Assembly (NCBI GenBank): GCA_012295275.1
Contig: CM022679.1
Location: 6,634,001-6,698,000, forward strand
Direction: 5' to 3'
From: Chrysomallon squamiferum
Taxonomy: Eukaryota > Animalia > Mollusca
DNA length: 64,000 nt
Shown: one piece after another, positions 5,101 through 57,822 of the stretch
Position numbering within the stretch: position 1 is the stretch's first letter
Layout: each line of letters opens with the position of its first letter
Made by a program: the position numbers and the translations under genes
The notes under the pieces: model-generated
The model's input: only the letters and a program-made list of their open reading frames with translations
What the model was told of the DNA's origin: nothing
Database searches by the model: none

Positions 5101-8100
5101 GACACTGCTGTTGCAGTTGCATTGTTCCAGCAGGGCATCTCACTATGGAAACAAATTGATGTAGTCATACAGCACAAATGTGTCTAACAAAATTTCAGTC
5201 ATTTGTCAGATATACATTTTATTAAATAATACATTGAAATATATTAATGAAATTTCACTAATTCATCAGATATAATTTTTATTAATATCAGATAAACATT
5301 TTACTAACTGATATAAAATAAAAGTTTGAATAATAGGTATAATTTTTACTAATATCAGATTTCAGGTTTACTAACTGATTTAAAATGCAAATATAATTAT
5401 TTCTAGCTGATGTCAGATATATTATTTAATTCAGTCAGTCAGTTGTAAATGTTTATTTTATTTATGTTAAATACAAGTTTTACTGAAATACAACATTTTC
5501 TAAAATTTATAAATAATTAAAACAAATTGATATTACATATAACGTCTGTGTGATTTTTTTTATAACAAAATTTAATTCATCTTAATTCCTATATACTTAT
5601 AAAAATTTAAAATAGATTCTTCCTTTCTAAGTTCAGACTTACATTTGCACTGAACTACTGAAGTTGCACCCGTGAATTGTGTGTACTTATACTGAGGACA
5701 TGGCTTGCATGAACTTGATTCAGTTTTATCCTGATAGTAATTAAGAGGACACTTCACACAGATTCCTGATTCTTCTTTGTATCCAGCTGGGCAGTGAGCT
5801 GCAGAAGACATAAAAATTATTGGTATTACAATTTTATAAGCCAGTAGTTTCAGTAATGCAAATTAATAGGTTTTTTTTCTTTCCCATTGTACTTGGAGGT
5901 TATATCACAGTGTATCCACCTACATTTTAAATCTACTCACGAAACTAATATTTAGAAATGGTTTTATTTATTTTTTTGTTGTAATAATAAACAGTTTAAA
6001 ATGTAATCTTTAATAATTATACTATTACTAATCAATTACTGCTTCTAACACTATGACATATTCTATTATTATCATAATTAGGATGAACTACCATTTGTAC
6101 CAGTATTTCTACAAATATTATACTACTACTATTGTATCTAAAAATAATAATAATAATAATAATGAAATTTTAATTATTTAATTTATAAGTAATGTCCTAA
6201 CTACATTTCTAAGATTCAGTGATGAACATTTTCCATGATATTAATTATGACCACTGTGTTATTAAATAAATGGAGTTTCATGCACTCACCAATACACTGA
6301 TCTCGTGAAATAGCACCAGAGATGGATGTGGCTGTGAACTGAGGACATTCCTTACATAACGTGGAATTTGGCTCATCCTGATACTGTCCAGCAGGACATT
6401 TTACACATGTTGCTTTCTGTTCCTTTGTTCCAGTGGGACAGTATACTGTAGAAGAAAACATTACAGTTAGTACATAGTATCATTTCTAAAATAAATAAAT
6501 ATTGTGAAGATTTCTTTAACATTTAATTTTAAAAACATAAATATGCTAATGTATGTACATTATAAGACACAGGTCATAGTTTATTATGGTGTTGTTTTGA
6601 GTATGAAAATTATGTTATCATGGACAAGATATTTAAGAGACATATCTAAAGGCTACAGTTATGTGAAATCAGTGAAATTAAATAAAAACAGATGAATTGT
6701 CTGTAATCAGTTAATAAACTTACAGTAACAATCCATGAGAGATTTGGATCCAACATTTTTTGTTGTTCGAAATTCTGGACAAGCCTTACAAACAGTAGTA
6801 CCAATCTCATCTTGAAACTGGCCTCGAGGACATTTGACACATTCCCCACGCTCTCCCTTTGTGCCAGCCAAACATTTTGCTGTAGTAATAAAATGAAGTA
6901 AAAGACACTGTGAATCATAAAGAAAAACATTGACATTATCACTGAAATAATTATTTAAAAAACCCCAAAACCTACAAGTGCTGACCAGGACAAAAGAAAG
7001 ATGTTATTACTCAGCCCATGTCAGACTACTTGAATGATGCATCTTCAACTAAAGATAGACCAGCCCAAACTGTTTTTATAGAAAACCTGCGTTGAGATGC
7101 TGTGTTGAATAGTAAAGAGATCAAAAGGCACAGAGAAAAAGATTGGTTCCTATAGCCTAGATTTAACTATTAAAAAACTTACGAAAACATTCATTCAGTG
7201 ATGTTGAACCAGTGGTGTTGGTAGTAGTGTACTCAGGACAAGTCTTACAAACTGTTGATCGTATTTCATCCTGGTACTGACCTACAGGACACAGTTCACA
7301 AGAATTTCCTTCATGTTTCATTCCTTTTGGACAGTTCCCTGATTTTATAATCAAATTAATAATAACTTAATTAAATGAAAATATTAATGAACAGCAGCAG
7401 CAACAACAACAGTAACAATAAGAAGAAAGCAACAACAAGTAGATCTACATCAATAATAATATTAAATAAATAAAGAAACAATATTCTGAAAGTTGTCAGT
7501 GATAAACAAAACCTATAACATATATATATATATATTTTACAGGTGAAATGATGATTAACTCACAGAAACACCCAGCTAGCGAAGGAGTTCCTTCAGCAAG
7601 AGTTGTTCTAAATGTAGGACACTGTTTACACTGTGTGGAGTTCATCTCATCTTGATACTGACCTACAGCACACTTCTCACACCTTCCAGACACTATCCTA
7701 GTACCCAGTGGACATTGTACTGGTTAAATAGACAGTAAACATTCTCAACATAAAAAAAAAAAAAAACACAAACAAGCAAATAAATAAATAAATAAACAAA
7801 ATAAATACTTCTTACAACTACCAGACACTGGCTTTTAACCCGATGGACACTGTACTGGTTAAAACAGACAAAATACATACATAGTTTATAAACTTTCTGT
7901 TTACTTTATAGATACAGCTACAAGGGCAAAACTTCATGCAGAAATAATTTAGTAGTTTGAGATGATTAACAGTTTATCAATTAAATGTTATGACAACTGA
8001 TGTTGCATATGTATTATTCAAAATAATGTTCACATTGTTATCAGTTAAACTGAATATCAAAATATATATATATATATGTCTATATAAAATGATTTAAATG

Positions 8101-11100
8101 AAACTACACTGTGCTACATTGTTCAGTATGAATGTAAACTTACAAATACATTGACTCTGTGATGTGCTGCCAGTTTGTTTTGTCACTTTGTTAGGCCCAC
8201 ATGATTTACACAAAGTTTTACCAGTTTCATCCTGGTACCAGCCTCTTGGACATTCTGTACAAGTTCCTGATTCTTGTTTTCTACCAACAGGGCAATGCAC
8301 TACAATTAAAAAGTGATCATTTCTGAGATAATTTCAAAATAATTCCTTTGATTTAAACTATTAAATTATTTAATATTGTATATGCATCCGTAACCCAAGA
8401 AGAAAGTATTAATAATGATAATGATTATGATTATGATGTTGATGATGATGATGATGATGATAACAATAGTTATAATAGCAATCAGAAATATTTATTTACA
8501 TCATTAATTATCCATTTGCTATAGTTTAAGGGTATTTTGCAGATATGCCTATCAAAAAAATGAAATGAAAATAAAAGGTAATATCATGTTTCTATCAGTA
8601 AAACACAGATTAAAAGATGTTACACATGGTAGAGTGTAAGGGCAATTGATTTTTATTTTAAACTATAAACTTACAGAAACACTGAGTAGAAGAAGTTGCT
8701 CCTTGTGAACTTGTGGTGTAATACTGTGGACAGCTTTTACATGTTTTTGCACCTACACCATCTTGATATTGACCAACTGGACACTGCTGGCATGTTCCAG
8801 AAACTGCTTTATACCCAGTAGGACATTGTACTGTAACATAATTATTTTATCCAGCTTATGATTTATTCAGATAAATGTAATTTCCTTCTCTTCATACATA
8901 TACTTAATAAAATAATACATAATACATTTTTGAATACTGTTATCTAAATTCTTAAAAGAGCTGGTTTCTGAAGTCCCTACTGAAGAATTACCTTTGAAAT
9001 GATCAAACAATAACTGAGGTGAGGGAGAATTTTACTGCATATTTGTTTTTATGACATAACCTATATAGTTCCTCAGTGAACAATAAAAAAATAAAAGTGA
9101 ATGATACATGCTACATTCTGTTGTTACATGACAATGTAAAAACAGTTAGAAAAAAATACCCATAATGTTAAATAAAATAAAATATTGATTCATGTTGAAA
9201 ATAGGTAGCAAAATAATTATTGTTTTGATTGGGGTGATTCTTAAAACAACTTATTTTAATTATAAATTCTTAACTTACAGAAGCACTGAGTAGAAGATGT
9301 TGCTCCTTGTGAATTTGTAGTGTAATACTGTGGACAGCTTTTACATGTATTAGCACCTATACCATCTTGATACTGACCAACTGGACACTGCTGACATGTT
9401 CCAGAAACTGCTTTATACCCAACTGGACATTGTACTACAAGAGAAACATTTACACATATTATTAAATAATTTATTATTTCATGATTAAGGCTTGAAAATT
9501 AGTATTCATTTGTAATAACATGTCATTCTAATACCTGTTTTAAATTATAAAGACACATGTTAAAATAAAAGTACAATAAAATGATAAATGTTTTGCTAAA
9601 CTGTCAAAAAGAATGGCTTGTTGTTTTGCAGAACTCATAGTACCACTAAAACTATTTTTGGGGGGTTTCATTTGTCTCTCAGATAAAAAAAAAAAAAAAT
9701 AATAATAAGTACAATAATGGTTATTGTGATGATGATGATGATGATGTTGATGAGAATTATTAAGAAAATATGTAAAAAAGTACTAATTCATCATAAACAA
9801 CACTGATGAGTGTAAACTATTTTGGAATTACCATGAAAATAATACATTCTTTGTTAATACTCTCAACTTACAGATACACTGAGTAGAAGATGTTGCTCCT
9901 TGTGAATTTGTAGTGTAATACTGTGGACAGCTTTTACATGTATTTGCACCTACACCATCTTGATACTGACCAACTGGACACTGCTGACATGTTCCAGAAA
10001 CTGCTTTATACCCAATGGGGCATTGTACTGTAATATTATAAAAATAATTACTGTCTATCTATCTATCTATCTGTATATATAATTTGTGTGTGTGTGTGAT
10101 GTTAAAATTTTAAAATAATAATGTATATGAGATTCTAGTATTTTAACAAAGATGCAGATATCCCACTGATTAGTAGAAAGATATTTTTTTATATATAACA
10201 GTACAAAATGAAAATAAAAGAAAGTTATAATTTTTTATTTTAAAGCAGGAAACTTACAGAAACACTGAATAGAAGATGTTGCTCCTTGTGAACTAGTAGT
10301 GTAATACTGTGGACAGCTTTTACATGTATTTGCACCTACACCATCCTGATACTGACCAACTGGACACTGCTGACATGTTCCAGAAACTTCTCTATAACCA
10401 GCAGGGCATCTTACTGCAGCAATCATAGAAATATTTGGAAATATTATTAAAATGTCTCTGTGTTGCACAATTTCTTCATGGAAATCATTATAAACATGTA
10501 AAAAATATGATAGTTAATCAAATAGCAATTGCAAATAAATAAATACAAATTACAACATGCTTATTGAAAAGTATTGGTTTGTGAAGAAAAATTTAAATGA
10601 ATTATTTATGCTAAATTTGCTCTAAGACAGGACTGTAATAACAATGAAAAAATTCTTATGGTGTTAAAAAAAATATCAAATGAAGATAACTTTTACTGTA
10701 TTTAAGCTAACAGAACATAGATAATAACATGTTGCTTTTCACTGATTGTTAATGCAACCATTTTTAGCTGATCTATCAACTTACAGAAACACTGAGCAGA
10801 AGATGTTGCTCCTTGTGAACTAGTAATGTAATACTGTGGACAGCTTTTACATGTATTTGCACCTACACCATCTTGATACTGACCAACTGGACACTGCTGA
10901 CATGTTCCAGAAACTTGTTTGTACCCAGCAGGACATTGCACTATAAAAATAATATAAATAAATAAATGATAAGTACACATCTTCTCCTTTCGTTATTTAT
11001 TCTTATTCATATTTTGTATAGAATGATTTTTTAATGAAACACTCAGTTTGGTTAATGTGATATCATATATATGATCAAGGACAATCCTGGTAAAATATAT

Positions 11101-14100
11101 ATATATATATAATATAATAGAATTTTAAAAATAATTCTACTAAATACATAAAAGGTTAAGATTTATTGTTTTCTTAATAATAACTACATTTCCTATGGAA
11201 TTCTGTCTATCTCAAGTATTTTAACAACAACAACAGAAATTGTAATAAAAAGTAACATAATGAAGCAGATGATGGTCATACAAAGCTAAACAAAAGATTC
11301 TGTTAAATATGATATTATCATGCTAGAATGCAAATATGATATGAAAAATCAATTTAAACACAAATACTAATTGATGTTTGTAAGTTTCATCATACAAAAA
11401 TAATCTAGAATATTCTATGACTGACAGCCACAGCAACTAATTTTAGTTTTAAACTATCAACTTACAGAAGCACTGAGTAGAAGATGTTGCTCCTTGTGAA
11501 CTTGTGGTGTAATACTGTGGACAGCTTTTACATGTTTTTGCACCAACACCATCTTGATATTGACCAGCTGGACACTGCTGACATGTTCCAGAAACTGCTT
11601 TATACCCAATGGGACACTGTACTGTAACATAATTATTTATAAACATTATGTATGTATCTTATTCTTATGAAGACTAAAGACTTCTTATGGTATGTTTTTC
11701 TTCAGGTAGTATTATTTTCCAAATACAGATATTAAACAAGCATTATTAGGTTATTCAACTAAAAGGTTAGGAACTGGTCTTGTGTTTTGTTATTTAGAAT
11801 TTTTTTATTTTAACAAATAACTCTTCCTGCCCCTCATATAATTTATAAATAATATAAAACATTGACTTTATTTTAATATAACAGTTTTATATGGATCATT
11901 ATAGATTTTAGCAGCACAATTTGTATATTGAATGGTCCTTTTCTAAACTAATAGCTTCACACATTAATAAAAGTTACTCTATAAAGATTTAGAAAGCGTT
12001 AAGAATGTGGTTTAAAATGTTTTCACGAATTAAATAATTCCACTCACTCCTCTATTTAAAAAGTTAGGACATTAAGGTGGGGTACCAGGATTCTGCGATG
12101 GAAGTGTTTTATAAAGTCTAAATGCACATATCTCATTTAACACTGATGCATTGTTTTTCCTTAATAAAACATGAAAACATTATTGCACTGGGAGGGAGGA
12201 CTGTGTCATAGTGTTGAATGAGGATAGTGGAGACATTCTTTTTGACTAGGCTGTTTAGATGGTAGTAATTAGGTGTTTAGAATGAAACAACAAAGTTAAA
12301 ATGAAATTGTTGATCCATATTATTATGTTTAACAGAACATGAAAGAGGTGACAGTGTCTGATACCCATAGCCTGCCAAATACGAGTTTTATACTGTCAAC
12401 TTACTGAAACACAGAGCAGATGATGTTGCGCCTTGTGAAGCTGTAGTGTAATACTGTGGACAGCTTTTACATGTTTTTGCACCTACAACATCCTGATACT
12501 GACCAACTGGACACTGCTGGCATGTTGCAGAAACTTGTTTATAACCAACAGGACATTTCACTGTAACATAATCATTTAAAATATACATATATTTTATTAT
12601 TGCATAACTATTTGATGAAGAATTTTATGAATTGATTATATAGCATAATTTGATAATGTACCTTTCTATTCTAAATATAGGTGCTAAAATAAAAGTTTCA
12701 AAATTTTTTAAAGTTATATTTATGAATATTTAAGAATAGTGGGTTTATTATTTTAAAACTGATAGATTAGGGGAGACAGACACTGGTTTCATCTCATTAT
12801 ATCTGAAACACAGCACTGACAACAAATAACCATTAATAAATAACTTTGAGATTTTAAAACTCTTTTGAAATAATGAAAATAATAAATTACAGGATAATAA
12901 TGAAGATTGTAATGATAATAATTCAGATAAATAATTTGGTATTCAGAAATTTGTATATGTGTGAACTGTTTCTGTTATCAATTACTTTGTAATTGTCAAT
13001 TAGACTCTCAACTTACAGATACACTGAGTAGAAGTTGTTGCTCCTTGTGAATTTGTGGTGTAATACTGTGGACAGCTTTTACATGCATTTGCACCTACAC
13101 CATCTTGATACTGACCAACTGGACACTGCTGACATGTTCCAGAAACTGCTTTATACCCAATGGGGCATTGTACTGTAATATTATAAAAATAATTATCTAT
13201 CTATCTAAATATAATGTGTGTGTGTGATGTTAAAATTTTAAAATAAAATGTATATAATAATTCTAGTATTTTAACAAAAATGCAGATATTAATGATTAGT
13301 AGAAAATATTTTTTTTTATATAAGAATACAAAATGAAAATAAAAAAGTTATAATTTTTTATTCTAAAACTTACAGAAACACTGAGTAGAAGATGTTGCTC
13401 CTTGTGAACTAGTAGTGTAATAAATTTGCACCTACACCATCCTGATCCTGTTTGGACACTGCTGTTGTTTTATAACCAGCAGGGCATCTTACTGCAGCAA
13501 TCTGGAAACATTTGGAAATATTATTAAAATGTGTGCATTGAGTTCATTTTTATAAACATGTAAAAAAATATGATAGTTAATCAAATAGCAATTGCAAAAA
13601 TTCTTATGGTGTTAAACAAAATATCAGGTTTCCAACTGTTGCTTCATACCAGCTGGACATTGTACTGCATTACAAATTAATAATAGAATAAGGCATTCAA
13701 TGTGGATAATGATAAAATACTAGACATTTTAGATAATTTATTATTATAGCAAATTATGGTATTTGCACACACACACACACAATATGAACTACAAATTTTT
13801 CTGAAATATTTAAAATAATTTTTCAATCTTTCAAATGAAGATGTTTTTAAGTTTTTGTTAAACAATACCAAACAAATATGGAATATAATCTGTTTTATGT
13901 CATAAAACTTCATAAATAAGATCAGAAAATGCAACAGCATACAGAACAGTATCCCTCTATCGTTCTTTCTCTAGAAAAAAAAAACAAATTAGAAAAATGT
14001 TCTCTATCAATTTACTACCTTATGATTTAGAGTATTAAAATTATCTTAGACATCTAATCTAGAAAATTTGTGTTTAAATCTTTCTTTTAAATAAATGTGG

Positions 14101-17100
14101 AGTCACACAAACACCTGGTCTGTAAAGATGTCCTCTTTTTATAGAGTTTCATGTGTAATCTGTTTTTTACAAATTACATTTCTTTGTCCAGTTCCTGTCT
14201 TTATATTATTATAGTTGTTTGTGTAACTGAATAAAAATATATTTCTTTATTTTCATTAAAGTGAAATATTAATACTTACAAACACACTGAGTCAGTGACT
14301 TAGACCCACTGTTTAATGTGGTTCTGTACTTAGGACATGATTTGCAATGTGAAGAACCTGGCTCATCTTGGTATTGCCCTAAAGGACACTCAACACATGA
14401 CTGACGTATTTGCATAAAACCAGCTGGACATTGCACTGAAAAACAAAGACATATTTGATTTAGACCAAAACATGAATAAGAATGCAATCACACACACACA
14501 CACACTCCACTCACACACAGCCATATGCACAGACATATACATACACAGAAGTTCTCACACATTACTCAAACATATAAACAAAACACACCACATACACATT
14601 CACACCACCAGTAGTGGTGATAGTAATATTAGTTGTAAGAGTAGTTGTAGTAACAAGATGATGATAAAGAACAATAAATAAATAACTATTAAAATAATGA
14701 TGTTGATGATAAGAATAATGATAATTAAAGAAAACCCACTTACAGACACACTGATCTGCTGATTTTGCTCCTACAATGGTTGTAGTTCTACTTGTTGGAC
14801 ACTCTTTACAGGTAGACTGTCCCTCCTCATCCTGATATTGTCCAGCAGGACACAGTTCACACGTTCCAGACACTTCTTTTGTACCAGTAGGACATCTCAC
14901 TAAAGTAAGAAAATCGCATTTTGTGAACAGCTGATATAATCAGAGTTAAGTTCTTTTTAAATGCTTTTCATATGCCTGTTAATGTTTTGCAAGACAGTTT
15001 TGTTTTGTATTAAAATTGAAATTCTGAAGAATGCTTGACTAGCAAAGATAATGAACTAAGATCCAGCAATCATACAGCATTTCAAAAAGTTAATATTATT
15101 ATTGTGATGGATCCAAGTTAAAATAAAAAATACTGATAGCCAAATAATGAATGATTATGCTGATCCATGTTTAAATATTACAAAAAATGATAGCAAACAT
15201 TTTATTTTTTTATTTATAATCTTTTAATAAATGAGATATATAAGCTGCAGCAAACATTATATATACTTTTACTAAATAATTAATTACAGAAACAAAAGTT
15301 CACTGAAGAGGCCCCTTGTGAAGCAGTGGTCTTAAACTTGGGACAGTCTTTACAAACAGTGGATCCTGCAATGTCCTGATACTGACCAACTGGACAAGCT
15401 ACACATGATCCTGCCTGTGCTTTAGATCCAACTGGACAATGGACTATTAAAAAATTAAAGAATGTGTGGTCAGAATAGAATGTTTTTGATATAAATATAC
15501 TTAATATACAAAGAATTTCCCATCCAAGTAGCGCTGGAAACTTAATTACTTGCAAAAACAATAGTAATACCTATTCAGTTATCATTAAAAATCAGTTTAA
15601 TATTTGGTTGACAATCTAGAAATACATTTATCATACATTAATGATACATCACACAGCATTAAGAAATATCTAGATTTATAAGAACTCACGTGTACACTGG
15701 TTAATGGAAGAGGCTCCTAGTATGTTAGTTATGTGGAATTGTGGACAAGGCTTGCAGCTTGTCTGTCCAGTCAGGTCTTGATAGAAATTCTGTTGACACA
15801 GGACACATGATCCAGATACTTCATACTGACCAGCTGGACACACAACTTGTACAGCTTCAAAATAAATAAATATATAAATAAATAAAAAAATAAAGTTGAA
15901 CAAATCAATACAAAATTATTTAGCTTAATGTAATTTAATTTAAATAATGAAAATATTCTGTTTTATTTCCATATTATATAATACTTATTACAAATTTTTT
16001 AAGTACCATAAATGAGGAAATTATCTATTTTCTTTATGTTGAAGCTCATTTTAGCTAGAACATTATATACTCAACAGTGATCATTTCCTTTCTTCAGACT
16101 GTCACAAAAGACATAGTATACATTTCCAAAGAAATCATCAAAAATAGTTATTCTCTCTTAAGCAGTTGTTACCAAATGGTAAGTAAATCAAATTTTATCT
16201 CTAGAAATTATGTTTGTAAATAAGATTTTAAACAGAGTTTTTAACTGGCGTTAGACATCACTTACAGACACACTGACTGGCAGAAACTGATCCAGATGTC
16301 TTTGTTGTTTTGCCAGCTGGACATGTCTTGCAATAATTAGAACCAATTTCATCTTGATATTGACCAACAGGACAGAGCACACATGTTCCCGTTTGTTCTT
16401 TGTAACCACGTGGACACTGGACTGTTTATATGAAATAGCAGTGTATACAGTACACACTTACATCACTCAGAAAATGTACCACTGACTGAGTTTTTAATAA
16501 AATATGTGTTTATAAATTATTAATTATTCCTCAGAAAATTTAGTAAAATAAATGTGTATCAAATATATTCAGAAAGTATAGAACTGACTGGATGTTTAAT
16601 ATATACGTTAAATATGTGTTGAATATTTTATACTTTGCTAATAGAATTATTAGTTCATTAGTATCAAACTAAAATATGAATAGAACTTACGGAAACACTG
16701 TGCAGTTGAAATTGCTCCTGTTATGTTAGTGGTCATGTTGGGTGGGCATGATTTACATGTTTTTGAACCAATCTGATCTTGATATTCACCAAGTGGGCAG
16801 GGAACACAAGTAAATGATTCTTCTTTCATTCCAGCTGGACATTTCACTGTTAATAATAATTTTAAACAATCACAGTAATAGTCATTAATATGAATGAGTG
16901 TTTTTTTTCTAATATAATGATTTATTAAAATAATTTTAAGTGGTAAAGAATAGTTATTTAAATAAAGATAATAAATTGTTAAAATTTTGAGATGATGAGC
17001 ATGAAGAGCTTGAATGAGTGAATGAATGTATATTTATATACTGTAAAATTTTAAACAAAATTATTCAAATGCTATTAAACATTTGTTTATTAATTGAATA

Positions 17101-19113
17101 ATGTTGATATGAGAGATGGAGGAATTGTGATGTCACCTACTCTTTAGTCTATCCTTACAGATTACCTGTAGTATCTTTTATACACACCTTCACATAGGAG
17201 GGTGCAATGTTTTGTAAACCATTCAAGAAGCACTGGCTGAATGCTATCTAGATAACAGATACACTGAGAAAGACTGATCCCATGAACTATGTATAGATTT
17301 TTGAAAAGCTTCTCATACTCAGGTTTTAATCAAATTTCTGTAGGTAACATGAAGTTTTCTGTTATTTCATCTTATTTCTTCATTATTGTTAAAATAGATG
17401 TTTTAAGATATAATCATCATTAACTCCACCTACTCAACATTATCATCAATAAAATCAATAAAAACAAGAATGTTTTTATTACTAAAACAAATATACTTAC
17501 AATAGCAATCAGTGAATGATGTTGATCCATTTTGATTTGTAGTATAATATTTCGGACACAAATTACAAGTCGTTGTATTTATTTGATCTTGGTAATATCC
17601 AACTGGACATTCTACACATGTGTCAGATACTACTCTTGTACCCTTTGGACATGTAACTGAAATACATAATGACATATTGAAACAGTCATACTTAGAACAG
17701 GACAAATACAGATATAAATATATATTTTGGATGTTTGAAAATCTACAAATATATTCTCGATGTATTATATTAACAAGGCATAGAGAAATATTTAAATTTA
17801 TAAACTCACGTGTACACTGGTTAATGGAAGAGGCTCCTAGTATGTTAGTTATGTGGAATTGTGGACAAGACTTGCAGCTTGTCTGTCCAGTCAAGTCTTG
17901 ATAGAAATTCTGTTGACACAGGACACATGATCCAGACACTTTATATTGACCAACTGGACATACAACTTGTACAGCTTCAAAATAAATAAATTAATAAGGT
18001 TGAACATATCAATAAAACATTATTTAATTTAATTTAATTTAAATAACGAAAATAATCTGTTTTATTTCCATATTATAAAATACATATTACAAATTTTGTT
18101 CTTTCCATAAATGAGGAAATGATCTATTTTTTATATTGAAGCCCATTTTAATTTGTGTGTTATATGCTAAACAGTGATCATTTCATTTCTTCAGACTAAC
18201 CCAAAATACCTACAGTATTATTTCCAAAGAAATCGTCAAAAATATTTATTACCTGTTAAGTAGTTGTTATCAAGTAAGTAAATCAGATTTTCTCACTAGA
18301 AATTATGCTTTTCTGAAAGTAATCATCTAAAATGTATATTCTCTGTTAACCAGCCGACATCATATGATAAGTAAACTAGATTTTATCAGTAAAAACAGGA
18401 TTTTAACTGGGGTTACAGATCACTTACAGACACACTGACTGGCTGAAAGTATAGAACTGACTGGATGTTTAATATACGTTAAATATGTGTTGAATATTTG
18501 ATACTTTGCTAATGGAATTATTAGTTCATTTATATCAAACTAAAATATGAATAGAACTTACAGAAACATTGTGTGGTTGAAATTGCTCCTGTTACATTAG
18601 TGGTCATGTTGGGTGGGCACGATTTACATGTTTTTGAACCAGTCTGATCTTGATATTCACCAAGTGGGCATGGAACACAAGTAAATGATTCTTCTTTCAT
18701 TCCAGCTGGACATTTCACTGTTAATAATCATGAAAACAATAATAATTAATATGCATTGTTATTACACTTTTAAATAATTAACAGAGAAGAAACTCCTGAA
18801 ATTTTGAGATAAACAGTAACTAAAATGAATATCAGCTCAATGACAACTGATAATTCACAAAATAACTGTTTTATGACTGAGGGATAAAGCTTATCCCACC
18901 ACTTCATCGATTAACCTTAACTTATTAAGGTAAACATTCACAAAATACTAACTGGAACGTTAAGCAGACCAGTCAATGTACCGAGAAGGATTAGTCCTAT
19001 GCTATGTGAAATGTTTCATATATCTATTGTCATCAAGTTTTAAAAAATCATTCTTTAAGCAACAAGAAATACATTCTTCTTCTTCTTCTTCATTTTCTTG
19101 TTATTATTATTTG

Positions 19114-19166
<53 letters not shown>

Positions 19167-21142
19167 TACTATTTAACAAAACAGGCATTTTAATGTATCT
19201 TTAAAAAAAAAATTTTTTTATGAAACAGGGTCGTAAACTTGTAAAGAAAAAACCTCAGATGTCGACACTATATTATCCTACTCAGCCAACCCCCCCTAAA
19301 AAAAACCCCGCTGTTTTCATTGTTTCTTATTTTATATTTTTGTTATATATATATATATATATATATTAAGAAAACTAAGCAACAACAACAAAAATATATA
19401 TATATATATATAATTGATTTCAACCAGTGATCGAAAATGTCCAATTGCTTAAATATATACATCATTTCATCAACTCAACCTAGAGCACCAATAAAACAAT
19501 TTCGCTAAAACAAATATACTTACAAAGGCAGTCAGAGAATGATGTTGATCCATTTTGACTTGTAGTATAATATAGAGGACAACTATTACACGTTGTTGTA
19601 TTTATTTGATCTTGGTAATATCCAACTGGACATTCTACACATGTGTCAGATGCTACTCTTGTACCCTTTGGACACGTAACTGAAATACATAATGACAAAT
19701 ATTTATTTTGCACTTGTTTCTATTTAATATATAAAGTATACCATATAGTAAATCCTCATAACGAAGAATTATATTTTGTTGAAAAGTCTCTCACTATCTT
19801 GATGGAGGTTTTCTGCTATTCACTAATCTACCAAGATAGGGCATTAGCCCAATATTACTTAATTGTAAAAGAATTTAAAAATAATTAAAGGCAAATGTAA
19901 TTTAACAAATTCTTTGAAATGGATTCTGGTTCATAAATAAATTGCAGTATGGTTGCTAATTATCAAACATGACAGACATTAACAGTAGGCTAAAAATAAT
20001 TGCGGTAAGTCTGCTAATAACTGTGGTTTTAGGAACCATTCATAATTTTTTATGTTTAAAGAAAGACAAATACAAAGGTAACCAACTTACGGTAACAATA
20101 GTTTATAGATGTGGCTCCTCTGATTGTAGTTTTTTATATTTTGGACATTTTGTGCATCCTGTCATTCCCGTTTTATCTTGGTAGAAACCGTATGCACATT
20201 CCACACATTTATCAAAATTTTCTGCCGTTCCAATGGGGCATGGCTCTGTAATAGTAATAATATTAATATTATAATAATTAGAAGAACAACAACGATAATA
20301 GTTAAATGGCAGAAAGAAAACGTATTCAGTATACTACTTTACAAAATCATTTCTAGAACAACTATTGAAATTTTATTCAGTATTTTTCATGACTAATGAG
20401 CATAAGTGCTGGTTGTCTGAAACTACTGTAAAGTTCTTACCACACATAGTATTGGTGAGGACATATCCAGCCTGCCGACATACTATGGTGATGTTTGTAT
20501 TTGAAACTGACTGAAAAATTAGTCCATATATGTCAATCTGAAAGAATAAAATTATTACACAGTAGATCAGTTTGCATTATATTTATCCATTACTATTCTG
20601 AAAGCATGAAAATAACACTGTAAAAACATTACATATCACATGTGGAGTTGTGAATAAATTAAATTAGTTACTTATAACATTCACTTTGAAATATGCTAAT
20701 CTGAAATAATCAAACAAATAAATAAAGTTAAAAAAACAACAAATTTATGAGTCAATTAAAAGACTGATTATAAAAAGAAACATTTAAATTTATTCCAGTG
20801 CTGATAATTCTTTTATTTATTTTCGTCTTTATCTTCTTCTTCTTATTATTTATTATTATTAAATTTTCATCATTATTATTATTATAATATATTTATTTAT
20901 TTTTGATGAGAGCAGATAAACATTTGCTTTCCTTTTATTTTCAACTAAACAGAATAATGTTCAGGAATAAATTATTGAAAAAATAAAAATCTTATTCTCA
21001 CATAGTTAGCTCATAGCAACTAAAAGAATCATACCAAAGTACTGAAAACTGTCTTGTCAGTAAAATAATCATTGAGAACATTTCTGGTAGATCTAATTTC
21101 TTCAGAACCTGTTGATGTGTTCAGCTTGAGTTCTTGTCTGCA

Positions 21143-21190
<48 letters not shown>

Positions 21191-23832
21191 GCAAATGAAG
21201 TACAGAAGGAAGTTTAAAAAAATAAGATTAATATCGTTTGATTAGATAGGGATCTTTTATATGCACATATTCATAAGCATGAAATTACATCTGAAATTCG
21301 TGATAAACTGATTGCCTAGCCTGAAATGGGAAACTAATGCAATGACTGGTTTGTGCTCTAACCCTGAGCTGCAATCTGCCCGTTATCACCAGTACCACCA
21401 TCACCACCACTACTAAAACTACTGCAGCTCTCACTACTAGTTATTGTTATCATAAAAAAATATTAATGACATCTTTTAAAACCAGCTAATAGTTATTTAA
21501 ATTTAATTTTGATGGATTAAAAAATAATAATAATAATAATAAAAAAAGAAAATAAATGAATAAATAAAGTAGAGAAAAGTAACACATACGGAATAGAGTT
21601 GAATATCAAATCCATTTTTATCGGAATCTGAGTCTGTCGGCGACGACGACCCGAAGACTGACATCCTGTTACAGCACCACTGACGTCCACGTTGTCGCAG
21701 ACCACATTGTTACATATTCCTTCCCACGTGCGATTGAGACGTTTCATCTGACGTCGTGCTTCAGCTCGTAGTGCGTCTGTCATCAACTCCGGCCTGTCAC
21801 ACGACTTTGCTGTAAACTGCATCGTGATTCTGTATGTCATTAAATCCAGCTGCGGAATCACTTCACCACCTAGCAAGAATCAGAACGATATCATGATAAT
21901 TACAATGTGTCTTTCTTTCAAACTTCTTGTTTTCTAGCTAGGTTGTATTAGAAAATACACTTGTAAGAATAGTAACAGTAGTAATTAAAACGAAGTATCA
22001 TACTTGGTAATGGAACACATTCTGCACTTCCCCGCTGAACAGTTTTCTGTCCTTGTGGACATTTTGTACAAAAACGTGACTGAGTGTTTTTGAAATAATT
22101 CATAGAACACTGTTTGCACTGAGAGTCCAGGTAATCGAACTCTTGTCCGGCAGGACACGGAGCTGTAATAATAACAGTGCAAAAACAACAGCAATAATAA
22201 TTATAGCCAGGACAGTTAGAGTAATTATAATAATTTCATTTTAAATTAAACAGTAACATAAAAAAAATATATACCAAATAATTGTATCATTACTGAAATA
22301 ATACACATTACATTATTATTTAGAAAATTACCATAAAACGTTTAGAACTGAGATACCAAGACAATTACAACATATAAATATTAACTTAATTCAATCAGAG
22401 TATTTATGTGATTGTCGAGGATAAATAAGTAACTAAACCTTGCATAACTGAAAATCTGTAAAGACTTCTAATTAATTTCTTTTTTAGAAAATGTTTGTTA
22501 ATATTTTTAAAATGAAAATTTTAACATGAATTAAAACAGATAAATTAAAATGTCAGGTAAGTGAAAACTTACGATGACAAAACTGTTTTCCTGTTGATCT
22601 GGTGGATTTGGTCAGAGTTCCAGAAGGACATGGGATACATACAGGTTGAGATATTTTATCCTGATACTTATCCAGCGCACAGTCAATACAGGTGTATGTT
22701 AAAGAATCCACACGTGTACCAGCCTGACACTGATCTATGAACAATTGCAACATCATTATTGTACTCAACAATAAAAACAACAACAGAAACAATAATACTA
22801 ACACGATCACCATAACAGCAACAAGATACCAAAATAGGGAAATTTAAATTATACAATAATAATAATACATTATATTAATACAATTTTCTTCTTATTATTA
22901 ATGTCGGAAAAATACTTATTTTTCTATCCTGTGCTTAAATATATATGCAAACACAGTAACAGACACACAAATTCTGAATATTTGTATAATGTGTATAGTG
23001 TATAAAGATACATACATATATAGTATATAAACAATACATACATATATACATACATACAAACAAACGTAAATATGTACATACCATCAGACAGATACATACA
23101 TACATATATATATATACATATAAATACGTACCTACAAACACAAACATACATAGATATATGCTTGTTTATTTGTGTTTATCTGTGTTTGTTTTTTATAAAA
23201 AAGAAAGATAAGTGATAACAAATTTTATATTGATATAAGTCATATAAACATCTTGCTATGACAACAGAAATTTATATAATAAAAAAGCCTACAATTGGAG
23301 AATGATTAATGAATACCTTTACTAAACTGAAGTACTTGTTTCAGCTTGGTCAGCAGTGGGAAGTTACCCTCATTACAGAACTGACCATTGAAGTCATCTT
23401 GAGAAATTTCGAATACCATAGCACCTCCTTAGATTCATATCCTTAATGTAATTAGCCTATTAAGAAAATAATAAACATATTTATTAATATACTGTTTTTA
23501 TGAGGTTGACATAACTGAAATTCATAAATGCACTAAATGTCTGAAAATTCATTATTCTATTTCGTTCATTGTGGCTATCATTAAACGAGGATGATTTTTT
23601 GTGAAATGTTGGATATGTTTAGAAAATATTTATTACCTTTATTTCAATACTTTTCTGTGTCTCGTATCCAACCCATTGCGCAGAGTCCCAGGCAAAAGAA
23701 GCATTTTGTTCTTGTTGAAATCCATACTGAAACTGGTATATTGGTTTCGATGTGCTGTCACTGCAAACCTGGAATGAATATAAGTAATGTTAACCTGTAT
23801 CTTACTACTTTTTTTCTGATTCTTTCTCGTTT

Positions 23833-23908
<76 letters not shown>

Positions 23909-24219
23909 TTCATTATCTTTCCGTCACTTACGTTTTCTCTCTCTCTCTTTCACATACTTACCTTATAGTATGGCAAATCATACGATGATGTGAATGGATC
24001 TCCTATTTTATAAAGCGTTTGACTCTTAAGCTGAAAAGCTTTCCCATAGAATGGTATTCCAAGAACAATTTTCTGAGCAGGCATCCCTTTAGACATCCAA
24101 TACCTCACTGCATAGTCCTGTTGCAAGGGAAACAATATTAAAGAAAACTTTAAAAATATAAACCAGATATGTATATACATATATGCATACATGCATATTA
24201 CAAGTATACATAATTTACT

Positions 24220-24287
<68 letters not shown>

Positions 24288-26850
24288 GAAAATGTACATT
24301 CTTACAGCATTTGTATAACTTTGTGGAGGTTGCTGATTAGATCTGGGATACAGTGGGCTGGGATGGTCAATTGTGCTGCTAAAGTTACCCTGGTAATCAT
24401 AAGCCATTATGTTCACAAAGTCGAAATCCCTTAAAACCAAAAAAAAAAAAAAAAAAATAATTTATTAACAAGAACAGTAACAACAAAAACAACAATAATA
24501 ATAATAATGTTAATAATGATGATGATAAAAAATAATAACAACAATATATATGGATGAATGACCAAATGACATAAGAAAAAGCAGGACAGAGATAGAAACT
24601 CAGTTAACTGACAAGTAGTATGTATATTAGATAATGTATCAATTTGCAATAATATATATATATATATATATAAATTGTTTTTAAACGTCCTCTAAAATAC
24701 TGTCTGATGTTAAATCCTTTCTTTTTATTTGCTAAAACTAAAGTATTCAGTATATTACAAGCTTTTATATAGTTTTAAAAACTTACCTTGTCAGGTTATT
24801 TACTTCATAAGAATTATCTATCGTCTGCTTGTTGCCTGAAACCGAGGCTGAAAGAATCAGTTTGCTCTTTGTCGTCTGACTGGCTGCTTCTGTATCAAAC
24901 TTCTGACGAAGTTGCTGTAAGTTTCATCACAAAATTTGAAAACGAGGTAAATTACATGAAAAAATTAGATGTCTTCTAGTTTCTACGTGATATGTGAAAG
25001 CAGGTAATTTATTTATAATTATAAAATAAGTTGTAAACATGAAAATAATTATTTGTACGATTTTGGTTTTTGGATGCATCTGCCTGAGACACTCAAAACA
25101 ATAAAAATACAAAGCAAGTAAGTAAGTAAATAAATAAGTAAAAAGTTAAGACAGTTGTAACAAAATTTAAATTCTTGTCAAACTTATATCGTTTTAATAT
25201 TATCCTGACAATTATTAGATATCACTCACAAACATTTTATGATGAAAACTATCAAATAGTTAATAAATAAATTAATAAAAAGACAAATTATAATTATTAG
25301 ATAAACTATTTTTGTAAGAAAGACGTTTGAAAAAAAAAGTCATTGTACTTTGTTAATGGCTTCTTTTATCTGTTTGAAGCAAAAATTATATTTTACAGTC
25401 ACCTTACCATTTTCAAAAAAAAAAAAAAACATTAAATTTTTATAATAGTCGTGGAGAATTTGGCTGGAATTAAAAATAGCTTCGCCCTTGAAATAAATAC
25501 ATAGATATTATGCATCATTTGATTTAATACAAAGCATTCCAATAACAATACAGTACAATAAAATAATAAATACTATAATAGAAACAGTTAGGTTTTGATA
25601 TGTTTATTTGAAAGTGTTATTTGGGGTTTTAATCTATTATTCCGTCATTCCAAGTTTCGCTTTGTTGACTGGAAAGCTACATTTGCTTAACATTTTTAAA
25701 TAAGAATCAAAAGTTCCATAACAAAATGAAAAAAAAAAAAAAATAATAATAATAATAATAATGATAAAAATAACGATAAACTACGACCAATATCGAGTGC
25801 GTACATGTTGGACCAGTTTTCTGTAGACGCTGTTTAGCGATAACAAAAAATGCTTTCCAATCGGATAATAAAATAACATATCGTTCCTTATTTCGAGCTG
25901 CCTGATGCATGTCAGAAAGTATCCTTGTACCTATATAAATACATTTTAAACATTATATCGAACGAAATATAGTATCTACTTTTTGAATTTAAAACCCCAA
26001 ACTTACTGAAACTAAGACACTGTATCGCTGATTGTCAGTAGAAATTCCGCCGTTTTCGCCAGGAAACTCCCAAACAATGTCCAGTCCGTCGAAGTTACGG
26101 TCACGGAGATATTTAATGACGTTGTCACAGAAAGCATTTATTCGTGTGTCGGTACTAACAACAGCAGAGAATGCAGCTGATGTTTGATTCCAGCCTCCAA
26201 CTGCCAAGAGAACTTTTAGTCCTGATGTCGAGAGTTTTAAATCTGTCACTTTTTTATAATTACCTGAAAAGTCAGTTTACTCTATTAGCAAAAGCATTTT
26301 TTAAATTTTACTTTTCTTGTTTTATTCTTATATTTATAAATATATATATATATATATATATAAAATAGCGCAGAGTACTGAAACCAGGTTTCATTCTAGA
26401 TTTTGTTACTGGATTTTTTGAGAGCTTTGAACTCTATTTTTAGTATATTTTATGTTTTTTTACAATGGTCAGGAATACGCAAACAATGATTTAAGTGAAT
26501 CCAACATATTCGATACATTGTTAATAACAAACAGATTTCGAGACAGCCATTTGGAATTTATTTTTCAATTAAGGCTTACTGGTGTTAGTAAAAATGCCTT
26601 TAGTAAAATTCTAAATCACAAAAAACAAGAGAAAATAAACTGATTGCTAAGGTTGCTAATAATCGTTATACTGCCAGTAATAAATTTCAACGTTGACCAT
26701 TTAGAAAAGTGGCTTTCTAAATAGTGGATTTGAAAGCGGTTTCAGTAATACTAATACTATTCGTGAAAAATCTCCGATCAAAATAATATAATTTCTGTAA
26801 AATTTAAACGTTAAAATAAAAAAGCCGACAAGTCCTTAAAATATAATATA

Positions 26851-26893
<43 letters not shown>

Positions 26894-27747
26894 GAAATAT
26901 GTTTTATGGTCTTCTTTTGAAAATTAGCACCTGATCTAAAACACCAGTGGGTTGGTTTCTTGTTCGTTTTTCCATCCCGCCCCCTTTTTCCAAAAAATGT
27001 TTTATTTTCTAATTAAAAAAAAAAATGTTTTAAACATAATTTTCAAATCCAAAGATGATATTTATTTACTACTGTTATCATAGAAACCATCAACACCGGC
27101 ATCACCTCTATGCTGCTATTTCTACCATCATTATTACTTATTTTATTGTTGTTGTTGTTATTATTATTACAGAGCAGTGCTCAACAGAAATCTTTTATAA
27201 ATATGATTTCTGTCAAGATAAAACAGAAACAAAGTATCAAGTATATAATTAGGGGAGTCACATCTATAAACAAGTGTTTTCGTAAGGTTGTTATCTCTAT
27301 ATCTTATCTGTTACGTAAACCATATATGACTTATATAACATAAAATTTGTTTTTGAATTTTGTTGTTATTATTTTGTTATTATATAATTTCACATCTATA
27401 AACAAGTGTTTTCGTAAGGTTGTTATTTTATCAGTTATTATTGACTTTATAACAAAACTGTTTTATTATTCTTTCCATAATGATCATCATCATCGTCATT
27501 ATTTAATTAAAAAAATGAACCACAAAGTTATGGTATTTGAGTAATAAGAAAAATGTTTACCGTTTAAACCGTCGTCGTTGGATTCTGTAGTTCCAAGCGA
27601 ATTGGTGTCAGGAAGGATTTTGGCGAACGCATACACAATGTGAGTACACAGGGATGGGTTGATGTTCTCAGGATTAAACTGCATGACCGCAGGGCGGTAC
27701 TGAGCCCAGTTGGCATAGTAACAAACACGTTTATAATCTGCGTTGAC

Positions 27748-38800: not shown

Positions 38801-39243
38801 TATATTAAATCAAATCTTTCTTTGAAAACATTTACCATAAGAATACGTTTGACATATGTATAAAAAAAAACTTTAACTGTCATGAAAAAGCAATGATATG
38901 CTCAGAGACAAAATGCAAACAAAAAGTTACGGCCCGGGAAGTAGATTAAAATTATAGTCATAAAATGAATTCTATGTCACTTGTTAACTGCTGTTATAAC
39001 TGTCAAAAGTTAACAACGAACTAGTTCTGTACCTCAATTATTAGCACTAATAATTTGTTCACTGGTTATATAATTATATCTGTTTGTCTGTCGTCTGGCA
39101 ATTTGTCTCTATATATGTCTTTGTTAATTTGTATATTTAATACAACAAACTCCAATTTAAAAGTGGCATAATATTTTTATTTAAACTTCAATAACTCATT
39201 AACTGTTTCCATAATTTAGTTTCACAATTCATTTTCCCTTAGT

Positions 39244-39900
39244 TCTAGCAGCTAACATGCAAAAGTTCTCCGATGTGATCAGAGTATTTCATATCTGTGC
39301 TATTGTGGCTGGTCAAATCGACTTTCAGAAATTCGAATACTGGAATCAGTAGTGCGGCACTTTCATTTTCCATGGTGTCAGTGCCAAAGTGGTTCCACAT
39401 TTCTAGAATACATAGCCCTTCTATTCAGATGTTGGTGATCTAGTCCATCAGTAATGACCATTTTCACCGTGGACTGATCGGCAGTTATGTTAACGTAAAG
39501 GTCCTCGACTTGTCCAGCACAATCATCGGAAGGGCTGACATTTTTTCACATCATCGTTTTTAGAATATTCTGATATTGTCCTACTTTTTGCTTACGACAT
39601 ATACACTTAGTGTAATGGAATAAACAGCCTCTCAAGTGCTAGAAAAATATCCACCACACACTTCCTTGGGTGCTAAAGAAAATGTCCCATCTAAAGATAA
39701 ATTAGCATCACCCAACAGTCGTGAACAAGGTGCAGAATATGGTCTCTTCCGTCCATATGTGTCCGCTCATCTTTCAGGTTGATTTTCTGTCTTGTTTGTA
39801 GTAGTCGAGGAAATGTTTTTATCGCATTGTCAGAATTCTACCAACACTATAGGCACAGCATCGTGGATCTTCCGCAGTTTGGATATTTCATCACATTAAA
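39244..39900 (-). mobile_element. Decayed Mutator-like (MULE) transposase remnant (tentative)
   Basis: GC-richer island. Broken minus-strand frames give FPRLLQTRQKINLKDERT, LDGTFSLAP and MWNHFGT, in the order I recall for animal MULE transposases. Confidence 0.4.
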
Positions 39901-40502
39901 TCTTCGGAATTGTTATTGTTGTTGTTATTAGATTAATCAATTTATTAAAAACAATCAAATAACATTTGATAAAACAGAGATTATGTAAACAAATCTATAT
40001 ATGTCTCTATCAATAAAGATTTCTACTAATATTTTAAGATTAGGTCTGCTATGTTCGTTTGTTTAGAAATATGCCCAGCACATGTATTAAAATTGATTAT
40101 ATTATTCCATGTTCATGTTATCACATATCACAACTCATAGTTGTATCAGTAACTCTTTTTTATTATTATTTTGAAGTAAGTTTTATGCACATGGAAAATA
40201 GCTAAAAAGATATGGTAAGAATTTATTCTTTGCAGTTTAAATATTAATTAACTAGACGTTAAATATGTTTGCAATGGAAATAAATCTTTTTTTTTTTTAA
40301 ATTTGAAATCAATCAAATCCACTAATTAAAACTAAACACACATACTTCCTTAATAAAACTAAACCTGCGATATAGAGACGTCATTCTGTAAGTAATGAAT
40401 TCATGAATATACTCATAACTACAATATAAGACGGCTGTAATTATGAGGCCGATATAAAATTAATATAGGATTAGCTACTGGGCCTCTGCTAAATTGAAAC
40501 TT

Positions 40503-43600: not shown

Positions 43601-46600
43601 GTTATCTCTGTCAAAGACCCGCTTGTCCTGAAGGTACTTTTTCATTGAACATCTGCTATCTTTCTATATATTGTAATAATTTTATATAAAATAGTACCTT
43701 TAAAATGTGGAAAAAAGTATCTATTACATATTTTGTTATAGTATGTCCACTAAAATGTCTTTTGTACTTACTTTTTACGGACTGTAAATTTTAACAAAAT
43801 GAAGACAAATTATTTACACTTAAATAACTATTTGAAACTTGAATAGATATTTCACAACTTCTGTATTATTGATTTAAATCACGAAAATGTTCATATTGTA
43901 GGAAGTTTCCACTGTTCAAATACACGCTGCATTAATAATAACTTGAAATGTGATGGAGAGGATGACTGCGGAGATTCATCAGATGAACTTGACTGTCGTA
44001 AGTTTGTTTTTACTTCTTTTTTAATAACATCTTAGATAATGGTATTTCAAAACTTCATTTATGTTTATCTAAAATTTTATATGATTTTCACTCTTATAAA
44101 CAAAAATATTAATTCATTGTGTGTAAGTGTGACTGAGCGAATCAATTTGTAAGATTTATTGTTATTATTATAATGTTATTTGTTTACTGTAAAATTATTT
44201 AATTTTATGTATTATTTAGCTTCTAAATGTTCCTATGTGATAAAACAAGACACTGGCAGATTTGTTTCACCAAACTATCCCAACAATTACTCTGATTCAG
44301 TCAACTGTTTGTGGATGTTTGAAGTGCAGACTGGATCTAATGTTGTTTTGCAGGTTAGTAAACAGCTTTTCTCATTACTAATGCTAATTAAATTCTTCTG
44401 AAAATCATACTGATCACATTCAGACATACAGAGTTAAAATTACATATGTTCAAATGAAATAGATACCATAATTTATTGATAAAAAAAGTTCAGTACTATA
44501 TTAATTATATATATATAAAAACATACAAAAAGAGAAAGTCAATAAAAATAAATAGATAAATCCACCAAAATCAAACAAGTAATAGGCTGTCTTCAAAAAG
44601 ATAATACTGATTTGAAAATCCCATATATGTTTAAAACTACACAAAAAACATATCAGATCTGTAGCACAAAGTGACTGAAGAACTAACTGGCTTTGTCACA
44701 CTGACACACACTGAATAAAACTTTGATTAATACTAATTATGATGTAGTTAGGAATTAACTGAAATACAGGATATAAAGCTAAATGAAATCCTTGGTTATT
44801 ATAAATTTATGATAAGGGGAAAATATTATAGTAGAAAAATTATTTAAAAAGAAATAAATCAATATTGTTTGATTATATCTACTAAACTTATGATAAGGGG
44901 AAAATATTATAGTAAAAAAGTTATTTAAAAAGAAATAAATCAATATTGTTTGATTATATCTACTATATAAGAGATTATATTTCATTTAAAAATACATTTA
45001 TAAAGACAAATTCAGATGTTCATTTATTTGAACTATACTTTAAAATGTAAAGTTACATTAAATTCACTACAAATTTTTTTTAATTTAGTGAACAATTACT
45101 GAAATGCAAATCATTTTAAATTGTATAAATTTCCTTTATAACAATGAATAATTTATTTGTAATATAGTGAGAAAATACATTAGATATACATGCCAGTTAA
45201 AATATGTAAAATGTTATGTAAGAGAAGAGTTTTGTGAACATTAGTTCTTTATTTTGTTTAAACATCTCAGTTCAGTAACATTGTTAATTATTGAAATAGA
45301 TTTCCAGTTATCTGTTTTATCAGACATAATAATTGACTTATTTCAGCTTCCTTTTTCCATTTAAAAACAAATAAAGTATTAATTAAGATACTAACAAATT
45401 GTCATATCTTACTTAGTTAAAGTATAATGAAATCTTTGTTTATTCACAGTTTCACAGTTTTGTCACAGAACAAAATGGTGACATTGTTGAAATTCTTGTT
45501 GGTGGCCAAACTGAATCCATGTCTCTTCTTGTCAAGAGCCTATCAGGTAATCAGAATGGAAAAAATCTAAAATTTGTTAGTTCCAACAACTTCCTGATTG
45601 TCAAGTTCACGTCTGATGCCTCAGTTGGAGCAGCAGGTTTTAATGCATCATTTTCTTCCAGTAAGTAGAAATACTCAAAAAACACAAAGTAGATTATTCT
45701 AATATTTAACATTTTTGTTTTATTTGTTTCGATTATTATTAGAATCATCTAATAAGAAATTGTAGAATGTAGTGTACAACACAAATTTGAATTAGTATTT
45801 TAACAGAAATAGTTACAAAAAATAAAAAATGTATCCATCTTTTTAGTATGTTAATTTCAATATTTTCCTGTAATTCTCAGCTGAAAATTGACATGATTTT
45901 TTTGAATTCTCGAGTTATGTTAAAAAAAATATTCTAAGTAAATTCTTAAAACAAATCTTTATAAATTGTAAAACTCAGTCAACTCACTGAAACATGTTGA
46001 TACTTACAGGAAAGGCAAACTTTCCAGACTACAAACAACTTACAGCTAGAGATGCACCACAGGAGATGACCTCACCATTTTATGACCAAGGCTGGAATTA
46101 CGTTGGCAGTCAGGACTATACCTGGATCATCACAGCTGAAAAGAAAACAAAGATTATAACTCTTGAGGTGAAATAAAATTTATCTTTAAAATGCAGTAAA
46201 TAAACTTACAGAACCCGACTGTGAATGTTCTCAGGCTTACTCTGCTGACCCTGCTTTGAGAAAATATTGAATTTTAAGTGTTTCATGTTGATGATTTCAG
46301 ATTTTTTGTTACCTTCATTCACTTTCTGCCTTTGTTCATCATCTTCACTTCTGAAATCAGCATAGTATAATTATTTTTCTTGTTTTGACTTCAGTAAAAA
46401 ATCTCTCATCTTAATTACTTGATGCTGATGAGAAAATGTCTTGGAAAGAATCATTCATCTGCAGATATTTTGTGCATTTTTCAGGTTGTTGAAGTGGATC
46501 TAAAAAACAATGACTTTGTGCTTGTTCGTGATGGGGACTCAGTGGCTGATAAACTGTTAGTAACTTTCAACAGTGACACAACAAATACACCATATATTTT

Positions 46601-47531
46601 TTCAACAAGCAACAAGATGTACATCACTATGCAAACTCGAAGTTACTGGACAGGAAAGGGCTTCAAATTCAATTATTTTCAAGGTATTTCATTTATTTCT
46701 GTGCAGTTGAAATGATTTTTCAGTATCTTTGATAGTTTGTTCTTCTTTAGGGTAAACAGGTCATATCACTAGATTAAAACTGATTTTAAATATGATTTTT
46801 TCTTCAAATATTTCTACCATTGAAAGGTTGAGGAGATAGATATATACACTTACTTACAAAAAGAGAGGGAGAGAGTGAGTGCCTCTGTTAAAAGTGATTT
46901 CTGTTTTTAATTTCTGTATGTGGAATAACTATTATTTTCTACGAAAAGAAATTTAAAATTATTTTTCTCTGTATTTAGGATGTACTGCTACTCTTACTAA
47001 AGATTATGGAAATATCTTCTCTCCTGGATATGGCATTGCCAATTATGCAGATAATCAAAAATGTACATGGAATATTAGCAGTGGAAAAGACTTGACATTC
47101 CTTGTTGAGGAATTTGACACCCAGGAAAATATAGATGTTCTTGAGGTAACTGATTATGATATCTGGAGAAAAAAGCTTGATTTGACAGATTCAAAATAAT
47201 ACAAGTGTTCATATAATTTGTAAAGTCATCAGAATTTTGTTCCTACAATTATATAATTTATTTATTTACAAATAAATTAATAGATTAATAAAATGAATAA
47301 TTATGTCAAGTGTGCAGTAAAACATAAAAAACTACAACATCAAAGACTTTTTATTAATATAAATAAATAAATTAAATACTTGATTATATTAACACAAAAA
47401 TTAAGTAAGATGTTTTTTATAACCTTTCATCATGTTAAAAATTGTCACCAGAAGTCTTCTTTGAGTATGGTTTGTGTATGTTTGTCTGTGTGTGTCTTCT
47501 TTGTCCTTGTGACTGTGTGTGTGTGTGTGTG

Positions 47532-47565
<34 letters not shown>

Positions 47566-56500: not shown

Positions 56501-57764
56501 CAGTGTTTAGGTATATTTATTTCTAGTTTTATCATTGTTAACTATAAAAGGAATTCTGAAGCAAACAAGAGCCTTATGTGTTACAGCTGATCCATGTTCT
56601 CTTTTGACACATTTTTATTTAGAGGTAGATATTTTATGTACTTTATGCAGGTCCCACCTATTACTTCCAAGCTGAAATGGTAATAATTATAATAAAATAG
56701 CAACAAACAAACAAACAAACAAACAATTAAAAATATCTTAATTATTGCTTTGAAATGTTTTTTTTATATATTTTGTCTCACAAAGTACTGAATTTCATTG
56801 TTAGATTACTTTGTTAAAATATCAAGATAAACAGACTTACAACATATTTTACAGTATCAGCTGTTTATAATTTTGTGAGAATCACAAATTTAAAAAGAAA
56901 TAATTGATAATATAGTTTACTATGCAGTCACATTCAATTCATTCTAATTTCTAACTGTAGGGAAGACATGCACTGACCCAGGTCGACCACCTGATGGTAA
57001 CCAAGCCAATCAAACAGATCAGTACCAGGAATCAAGTGGAGTCTACTTCAACTGTTCAAGACCTGGATTTTCTCTTGTTGGTACAAATCCTATCAAGTGT
57101 CAGATAAATAATGCAGGCAGTGGTTTGAACTGGTCTGCTCCTGTTCCAGAATGTAAAGGTCAGTTTAAATACATTTTTCTCTAGTAATTAAATATCTCAT
57201 TGACATATTAATGTTTTTATAAAATTAATAAACATTGCTAATATAATTATTACAGATACTACTACCAATGTAAACTTGAATGTGAAAATTAATTTCATAT
57301 TATTATCACTAGAAATAAGCTTGAGATGCATGAGCTCTTGTTCAAAACAATTGTCTTTTGAAATGTTCTGATTTTATTTATTACAGACACAGAGAAGCCA
57401 GTGTTTACAGATTGTGTGTCCACCAAATCTGTTTCACTGTATGTCAGGGCATCTGATGTTGTTCCTGTCCCAAATGCAAAGGATAATGTCGGAATCAAAT
57501 CATTTTCAGTTTCTCCTCAGTGGCCTTCCAAAGAATATATAATAACTCAGAATGTAACTTTCATTTTTGTTGCTGAAGACTTTGCAGGAAATCAAGAGAT
57601 TTGCACAACAAACATTATAATTAAAGGTTTGTGACACGTAATATTTTGTTAAATTTGTTCCCATCTGATAATACAAAACAAAAAAAACAATTACAAACTA
57701 ATTTTGAAAAAAAAAAAAAAAAAAACCCAGAAAGGATTTATTTATGTTATTATTGTTGTTGTTA

Positions 57765-57822
<58 letters not shown>

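Follow-up and report, generated by a model that had tools for sequence, protein, structure and literature searches.

Catalytic acids apparently lost by two routes in duplicated copies of a membrane-anchored GH18 gene of Chrysomallon squamiferum

The window analysed here, 64,000 nucleotides of AT-rich, intron-rich animal DNA from the mollusc Chrysomallon squamiferum, carries on its minus strand a GH18 gene in which the last Asp of the catalytic motif DxxDxDxE is replaced by Val. The best explanation, to which we give a probability of roughly 0.5, is that this Val is derived in one duplicated copy while sister copies lost the catalytic Glu, that the head is a non-catalytic binding domain and that the window copy has recently been disabled. 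As judged from sequence, the domain is conserved apart from a selective loss of catalysis, which took two routes, and the product likely belongs to a lectin-like, non-catalytic subfamily of membrane GH18 proteins. Catalytic loss following duplication is a known theme in GH18.

Minus-strand positions 26093–26061 translate as FDGLDIVWEFP, giving D-x-V-x-E rather than the intact motif. The middle Asp (codon GAC, 26079–26081) and the catalytic Glu (GAG, 26067–26069) are retained, and in an alignment with acidic mammalian chitinase the Val (GTT, 26073–26075) falls opposite the final Asp of DxxDxDxE. The motif and GGW lie in an exon at 26007–26263 (PF00704, E 5.5e-21); a Pfam profile search matches PF00704 to three exons of the gene, and the closest solved structures to the GH18 domain are AMCase and chitotriosidase. 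The last Asp of DxxDxDxE positions the N-acetyl group of the substrate and tunes the Glu. We take the Val site to be equivalent to D313 of SmChiA, whose D313A mutant is called inactive (PMC6145945), and to D142 of Serratia ChiB, loss of which presumably lowers activity strongly. Among 271 motifs from 153 fetched homologous proteins, 239 have both Asp and Glu and 23 retain Glu with another residue at the Asp position; Val was found there in none.

The gene has 40-plus exons and encodes a predicted type I membrane protein, ordered as a GH18 head (seven exons, 27746–23317), two Ephrin_rec_like exons, three alpha/beta exons, 27 further repeat exons (29 Ephrin_rec_like repeat exons in all), EGF, a transmembrane segment and a likely tail. 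The first GH18 exon found is at 27561–27746, and no signal-peptide exon was located upstream of it within the window. Downstream of the motif exon, four GH18 exons (24914–24787, 24429–24306, 24117–23962 and 23768–23637; AYD retained) are followed by the last, of 140 nt (23317–23456), and by the two Ephrin_rec_like (PF07699) exons (22004–22734). The next three exons (20441–21869) encode a predicted alpha/beta domain, which we infer to be SEA-like from the strand-helix order in the model of a Haliotis relative (mean pLDDT 61); the best 50 Foldseek matches to that model were all GH18, with no SEA match among them, and a sequence search with the SEA-like exon gave three matches. The repeat exons of the stalk comprise one of 155 nt (20091–20245), 25 intact exons of 156 nt with AG/GT ends and without stops (4987–19679), and a decayed repeat (~13491–13374). 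They are followed by an EGF exon (4243–4374; PF00008, E 4.3e-07), a hydrophobic, predicted transmembrane exon (3624–3726) resembling the corresponding stretch of Haliotis and Patella proteins, and a likely last exon encoding a putative cytoplasmic tail (562–1000). A second GH18 copy was not found within the window.

The alpha/beta domain includes an RRRR site (21648–21637), which reads RRKR in Patella and two further relatives and is missing in Haliotis; this is a putative furin-type site, cleavage of which could free the head. The stalk (8675–19679) has been lengthened by recent exon duplication, seen in a run of repeat copies 88–98% alike and in a three-exon block present at 19679–17810 and 17656–15690; Pfam finds three repeats in each of two scanned gastropod relatives, compared with 29 repeat exons here.

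The same domain order (GH18, two repeats, alpha/beta domain, repeats, EGF-like, membrane helix) is found in four Haliotis species (XP_046352701.2, XP_071106318.1, XP_067670751.1, XP_046572897.1) and two Patella species (XP_050392559.1 and KAK6171442.1), whose transmembrane sequence is also similar, these gastropod GH18, Ephrin_rec_like and transmembrane proteins being database annotations. The best match is Gigantopelta aegis, whose partial entries XP_041379020.1 and XP_041379019.1 have the motif intact, unlike the window copy, and are 73% identical over the motif exon and 72–74% over 226 residues of the head. Identity of the GH18 head falls to 42% with H. rufescens and 38% with P. caerulea. 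In a quick tree of 43 domains the window protein groups with Gigantopelta (support 100) and then with Haliotis (91), the placement of Patella being unresolved. DxxDxDxE is intact in all eight closest relatives aligned (Gigantopelta, Haliotis, Patella), which indicates that the Val is derived. The two Gigantopelta entries are near-identical, but the conserved GGW is GSL in one of them, possibly a parallel erosion of the binding groove. A search for short ORF-length relatives returned four matches (43–47%), none from the source organism. Among the papers listed in literature searches, none describes a gastropod GH18-Ephrin_rec_like-transmembrane family in its title or abstract opening, although the supplements of PMC7560691 may show it.

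Contigs from seven public runs of the source organism (X1–X7, three studies) and one run of a second organism (X10) were compared with the window. One X2 contig (record 13; 282 bases, 25864–26145) is identical to the window across the Val codon, with no differences, and X2, which may be the assembly's own source sample, is the only one of the seven runs in which this codon is spanned exactly. All contigs covering position 26074 in X1, X3, X4, X5 and X7 encode Asp, and in X6 the position is covered by a distant paralogue only; X10 yielded two short pieces of low identity. The sequence-only reading had held that reads showing GAT would overturn the Val, a test that would mislead here: most contigs do carry GAT, and these come from sister copies. 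That such contigs expose the Val as an error was ruled out, as the Asp contigs differ from the window at many further sites. Each long Asp contig of the same family shows between 7 and 34 differences from the window and the intron adjoining the motif exon is ~21% diverged between them, so they fit paralogues better than alleles. The Val and the retained Glu that the sequence-only reading described are borne out in the window sequence and exactly in X2, the contig support for the Val being slender but direct.

That only Asp is seen in five of the six runs with family contigs over 26074 might suggest a private allele or a consensus error limited to the source individual. We regard this as very unlikely, given that the X2 contig spans the Val exactly and that window-identical contigs (no differences over 110–282 bases) are also present in X1, X3, X4 and X5, where they end at 26064 or 26050, 10–24 bases short of 26074; among the pieces listed for X6 and X7 there was no window-identical contig. 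Depth, a weak measure, also fits collapse of a window-type branch in X4 (shared-contig depth 23.9, against 24.1 predicted if collapsed and 27.3 if not) and X5 (16.8, against 18.3 and 24.2).

The sister copies carry a different set of replacements. Single contigs of X3, X4 and X5 (records 8, 11 and 19) combine 26081 C>T, 26074 A>T and 26069 C>G, with all differences accounted for, and read Asn-Ile-Asp-Trp-Gln (N-x-D-x-Q), in which the Glu retained in the window copy is Gln. The change of the middle Asp to Asn (26081 C>T) is found in X1–X5 and in most sister copies, and is absent in X7, where arithmetic on difference counts suggests a Gln-bearing copy of the form D-x-D-x-Q. As the sister copies lost the Glu instead, the head is likely non-catalytic. 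No copy of the gene with an intact motif was seen among the contigs of its family in the source-organism runs; because contigs collapse or drop variants, such a copy may nevertheless exist in this organism. Contigs of the source-organism runs that match 26062–26093 and 26185–26216 reveal a further, more distantly related chitinase gene, in which Asp and Glu are retained.

Replacements in the motif exon are concentrated on the catalytic acids. Twelve variants pooled over copies are listed for this one exon (up to four further differences near its end are unplaced); eight are silent, and three of the four replacements are the three catalytic acids. Given the Val, the probability that both other acids would also be changed is 0.001 with four replacements and 0.007 with eight. 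For the excess of silent changes (8/12) the binomial p is 0.003; counting every one of the four unplaced differences as a replacement raises it to 0.026. Copies are about 13% apart at silent sites. A neutrally evolving pseudogene is not what these figures describe: pN/pS is 0.16–0.33 for the motif exon and 0.32 for recently duplicated repeats compared in seven disjoint pairs, values that a pseudogene would show only if its disablement were recent. They indicate conservation of the GH18 domain at a time when change at its catalytic acids was either tolerated or favoured.

The window copy nevertheless carries lesions, which the sequence-only reading had overlooked. An extra A at 23430–23429 in the last GH18 exon causes, as assembled, a +1 frameshift with a stop 11 codons on, ahead of the last barrel strand. 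Because this truncates the barrel, the copy as assembled would be unable to make the receptor. A second frameshift, also as assembled, lies in the stalk exon at 20245–20091, which has 155 nt, compared with 156 in 25 others, and is a base short in an A run at ~20135–20130. The repeat at ~13491–13374 has lost bases and retains its splice ends. Within the head, NWAQYR, GGW and AYD are retained; YGR reads YGK at 24048–24040 (as in 4 of 237 sites) and the last-strand Trp, which is important for sugar binding in relatives, reads Phe at about 23413–23411, downstream of the frameshift. Of 192 matched sites in homologues, 190 are Trp, 2 are Tyr and none is Phe, and the site is Trp in all six full-length Haliotis and Patella proteins, unlike the window copy. 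Since the 25 repeat exons are free of stops, any disablement is recent, and a rough timing from a single intron stretch favours Val before disablement 5- to 23-fold.

These lesions bear on a possible, if rather doubtful, explanation in terms of birth and death without new function, in which the Val would be just one of several lesions in decaying surplus duplicates, with the function carried by an intact copy that has gone unseen. The two frameshifts as assembled, the decayed repeat exon, the Trp-to-Phe and Arg-to-Lys changes and the missing upstream signal-peptide exon would all accord with it, as would GSL for GGW in one of the two Gigantopelta entries and the report that molluscan GH18 genes often lie in recent tandem arrays (PMC7560691). 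The predominance of silent changes and the clustering of replacements on the three acids argue against it, as do the 25 stop-free repeat exons and the nature of the Trp-to-Phe change, which takes two base changes and retains an aromatic ring.

If the frameshifts were assembly errors, the window copy could instead be whole and act as a weak enzyme or transglycosylase through its retained Glu, an alternative we consider unlikely. Both constitutive frameshifts are single-base changes in A runs, and loss of the Asp with Glu retained does occur naturally (the 23 motifs above). Among engineered enzymes, D313A and D313N of Vibrio ChiA are reported to accumulate longer oligomers (PMC7329927). However, the window-identical contigs show no differences over their 110–282 bases, the neighbouring gene has no frameshift in the 11 exons inspected, and the site would be weaker still with Phe in place of Trp. 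The 23 natural cases, moreover, all come from multi-domain chitinases, where each is the last domain and sits behind another GH18 domain, whereas the window protein has only one; their Asp is replaced by Cys, Ala, Asn or Gln and never by Val.

Under the preferred reading, of a Val derived in one copy of a non-catalytic family, the ancestor would have been a catalytically active chitinase of the cell surface, like those of abalone and limpet. The stalk would then have lengthened in this lineage and hydrolysis would no longer have been needed, possibly following changes like that of the last-strand Trp to Phe. Copies would then have lost acids independently, by Asp-to-Val in one and by Glu-to-Gln, later with Asp-to-Asn, in others, with the remainder of the domain under purifying selection throughout. 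The product would be a putative sugar-binding head, serving in adhesion or recognition and held far off the cell surface, and the window copy would subsequently have acquired its frameshifts. More tentatively, the gene could belong to a family of pseudo-enzyme receptors, long-stalked and variable between copies, in which catalysis was switched off at least twice (Asp-to-Val; Glu-to-Gln and then the Ym1-like Asn/Gln combination), with no active copy remaining and with heads to which chitin-like or microbial sugars would bind and be left intact.

Comparable losses are known from soluble chi-lectins. IDGF chi-lectins likewise replace catalytic acids. In YKL-40, YKL-39 and IDGF, acids were lost after duplication, as here (PMC2885077, PMC11190707); YKL-40 and YKL-39 are soluble and have both Asp and Glu replaced, with oligomers still bound (PMC2885077), whereas the window copy retains its Glu. 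Of the mouse proteins Ym1/Ym2 (Chil3/Chil4), Ym1 (FDGLNLDWQYP) has the N-x-D-x-Q pattern of the sister copies, although it is secreted, mammalian and of independent origin, and the window copy itself is D-x-V-x-E. Narbonin, like the window copy, retains its Glu, and it is inactive (PMC3662789). Oyster Ca-Chit is also a molluscan GH18 protein with a C-terminal membrane anchor; its catalytic domains number two, and its linker is rich in Thr where the window gene has a cysteine-rich repeat stalk (PMC4457423).

The suggestion that the head is a weak enzyme or lectin with a receptor or adhesion role gains from the loss of Glu in sister copies and the mostly silent changes in the exon, and is held back by the frameshifts as assembled and by the last-strand Phe. 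Loss of the Glu, named there as the typical mark of chi-lectins, is seen in the sister copies, which have Gln, and not in the window copy. Because the last-strand Trp is Phe, chitin binding by the window head is not a given, and with Ym1 reported to be without chitin binding (PMC11190707) a chitin-lectin role stays putative. Restoring the motif failed to revive YKL-40 or Ym1 according to the same report, so the V-to-D revertant proposed for assay may stay inactive.

Taken alone, a single replacement of Asp by Val in a copy that may be dead matters little; more is to be learned from the comparison of copies. Duplicates of very recent date from which different acids were removed, together with close relatives that are intact, offer a route from chitinase to pseudo-enzyme that is short and open to testing, where older examples, YKL-40 and Ym1 among them, are difficult to trace back. 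They also draw attention to a gastropod family of GH18 proteins with membrane anchors that has been little noticed. Since a survey of seven molluscs describes the key GH18 acids as well preserved (PMC7560691), the window gene family would be an exception.

The neighbouring gene (45991–63750, plus strand) points away from the GH18 gene and includes sushi and Ephrin_rec_like exons, others being CUB-like or HYR-like by eye. At 50001–51141 a gap of 200 Ns (50469–50668) lies between exact duplicates of at least 468 bases that include a sushi exon, likely an assembly overlap. Between the two genes, 39215–39930 has raised GC and short open frames on either strand.
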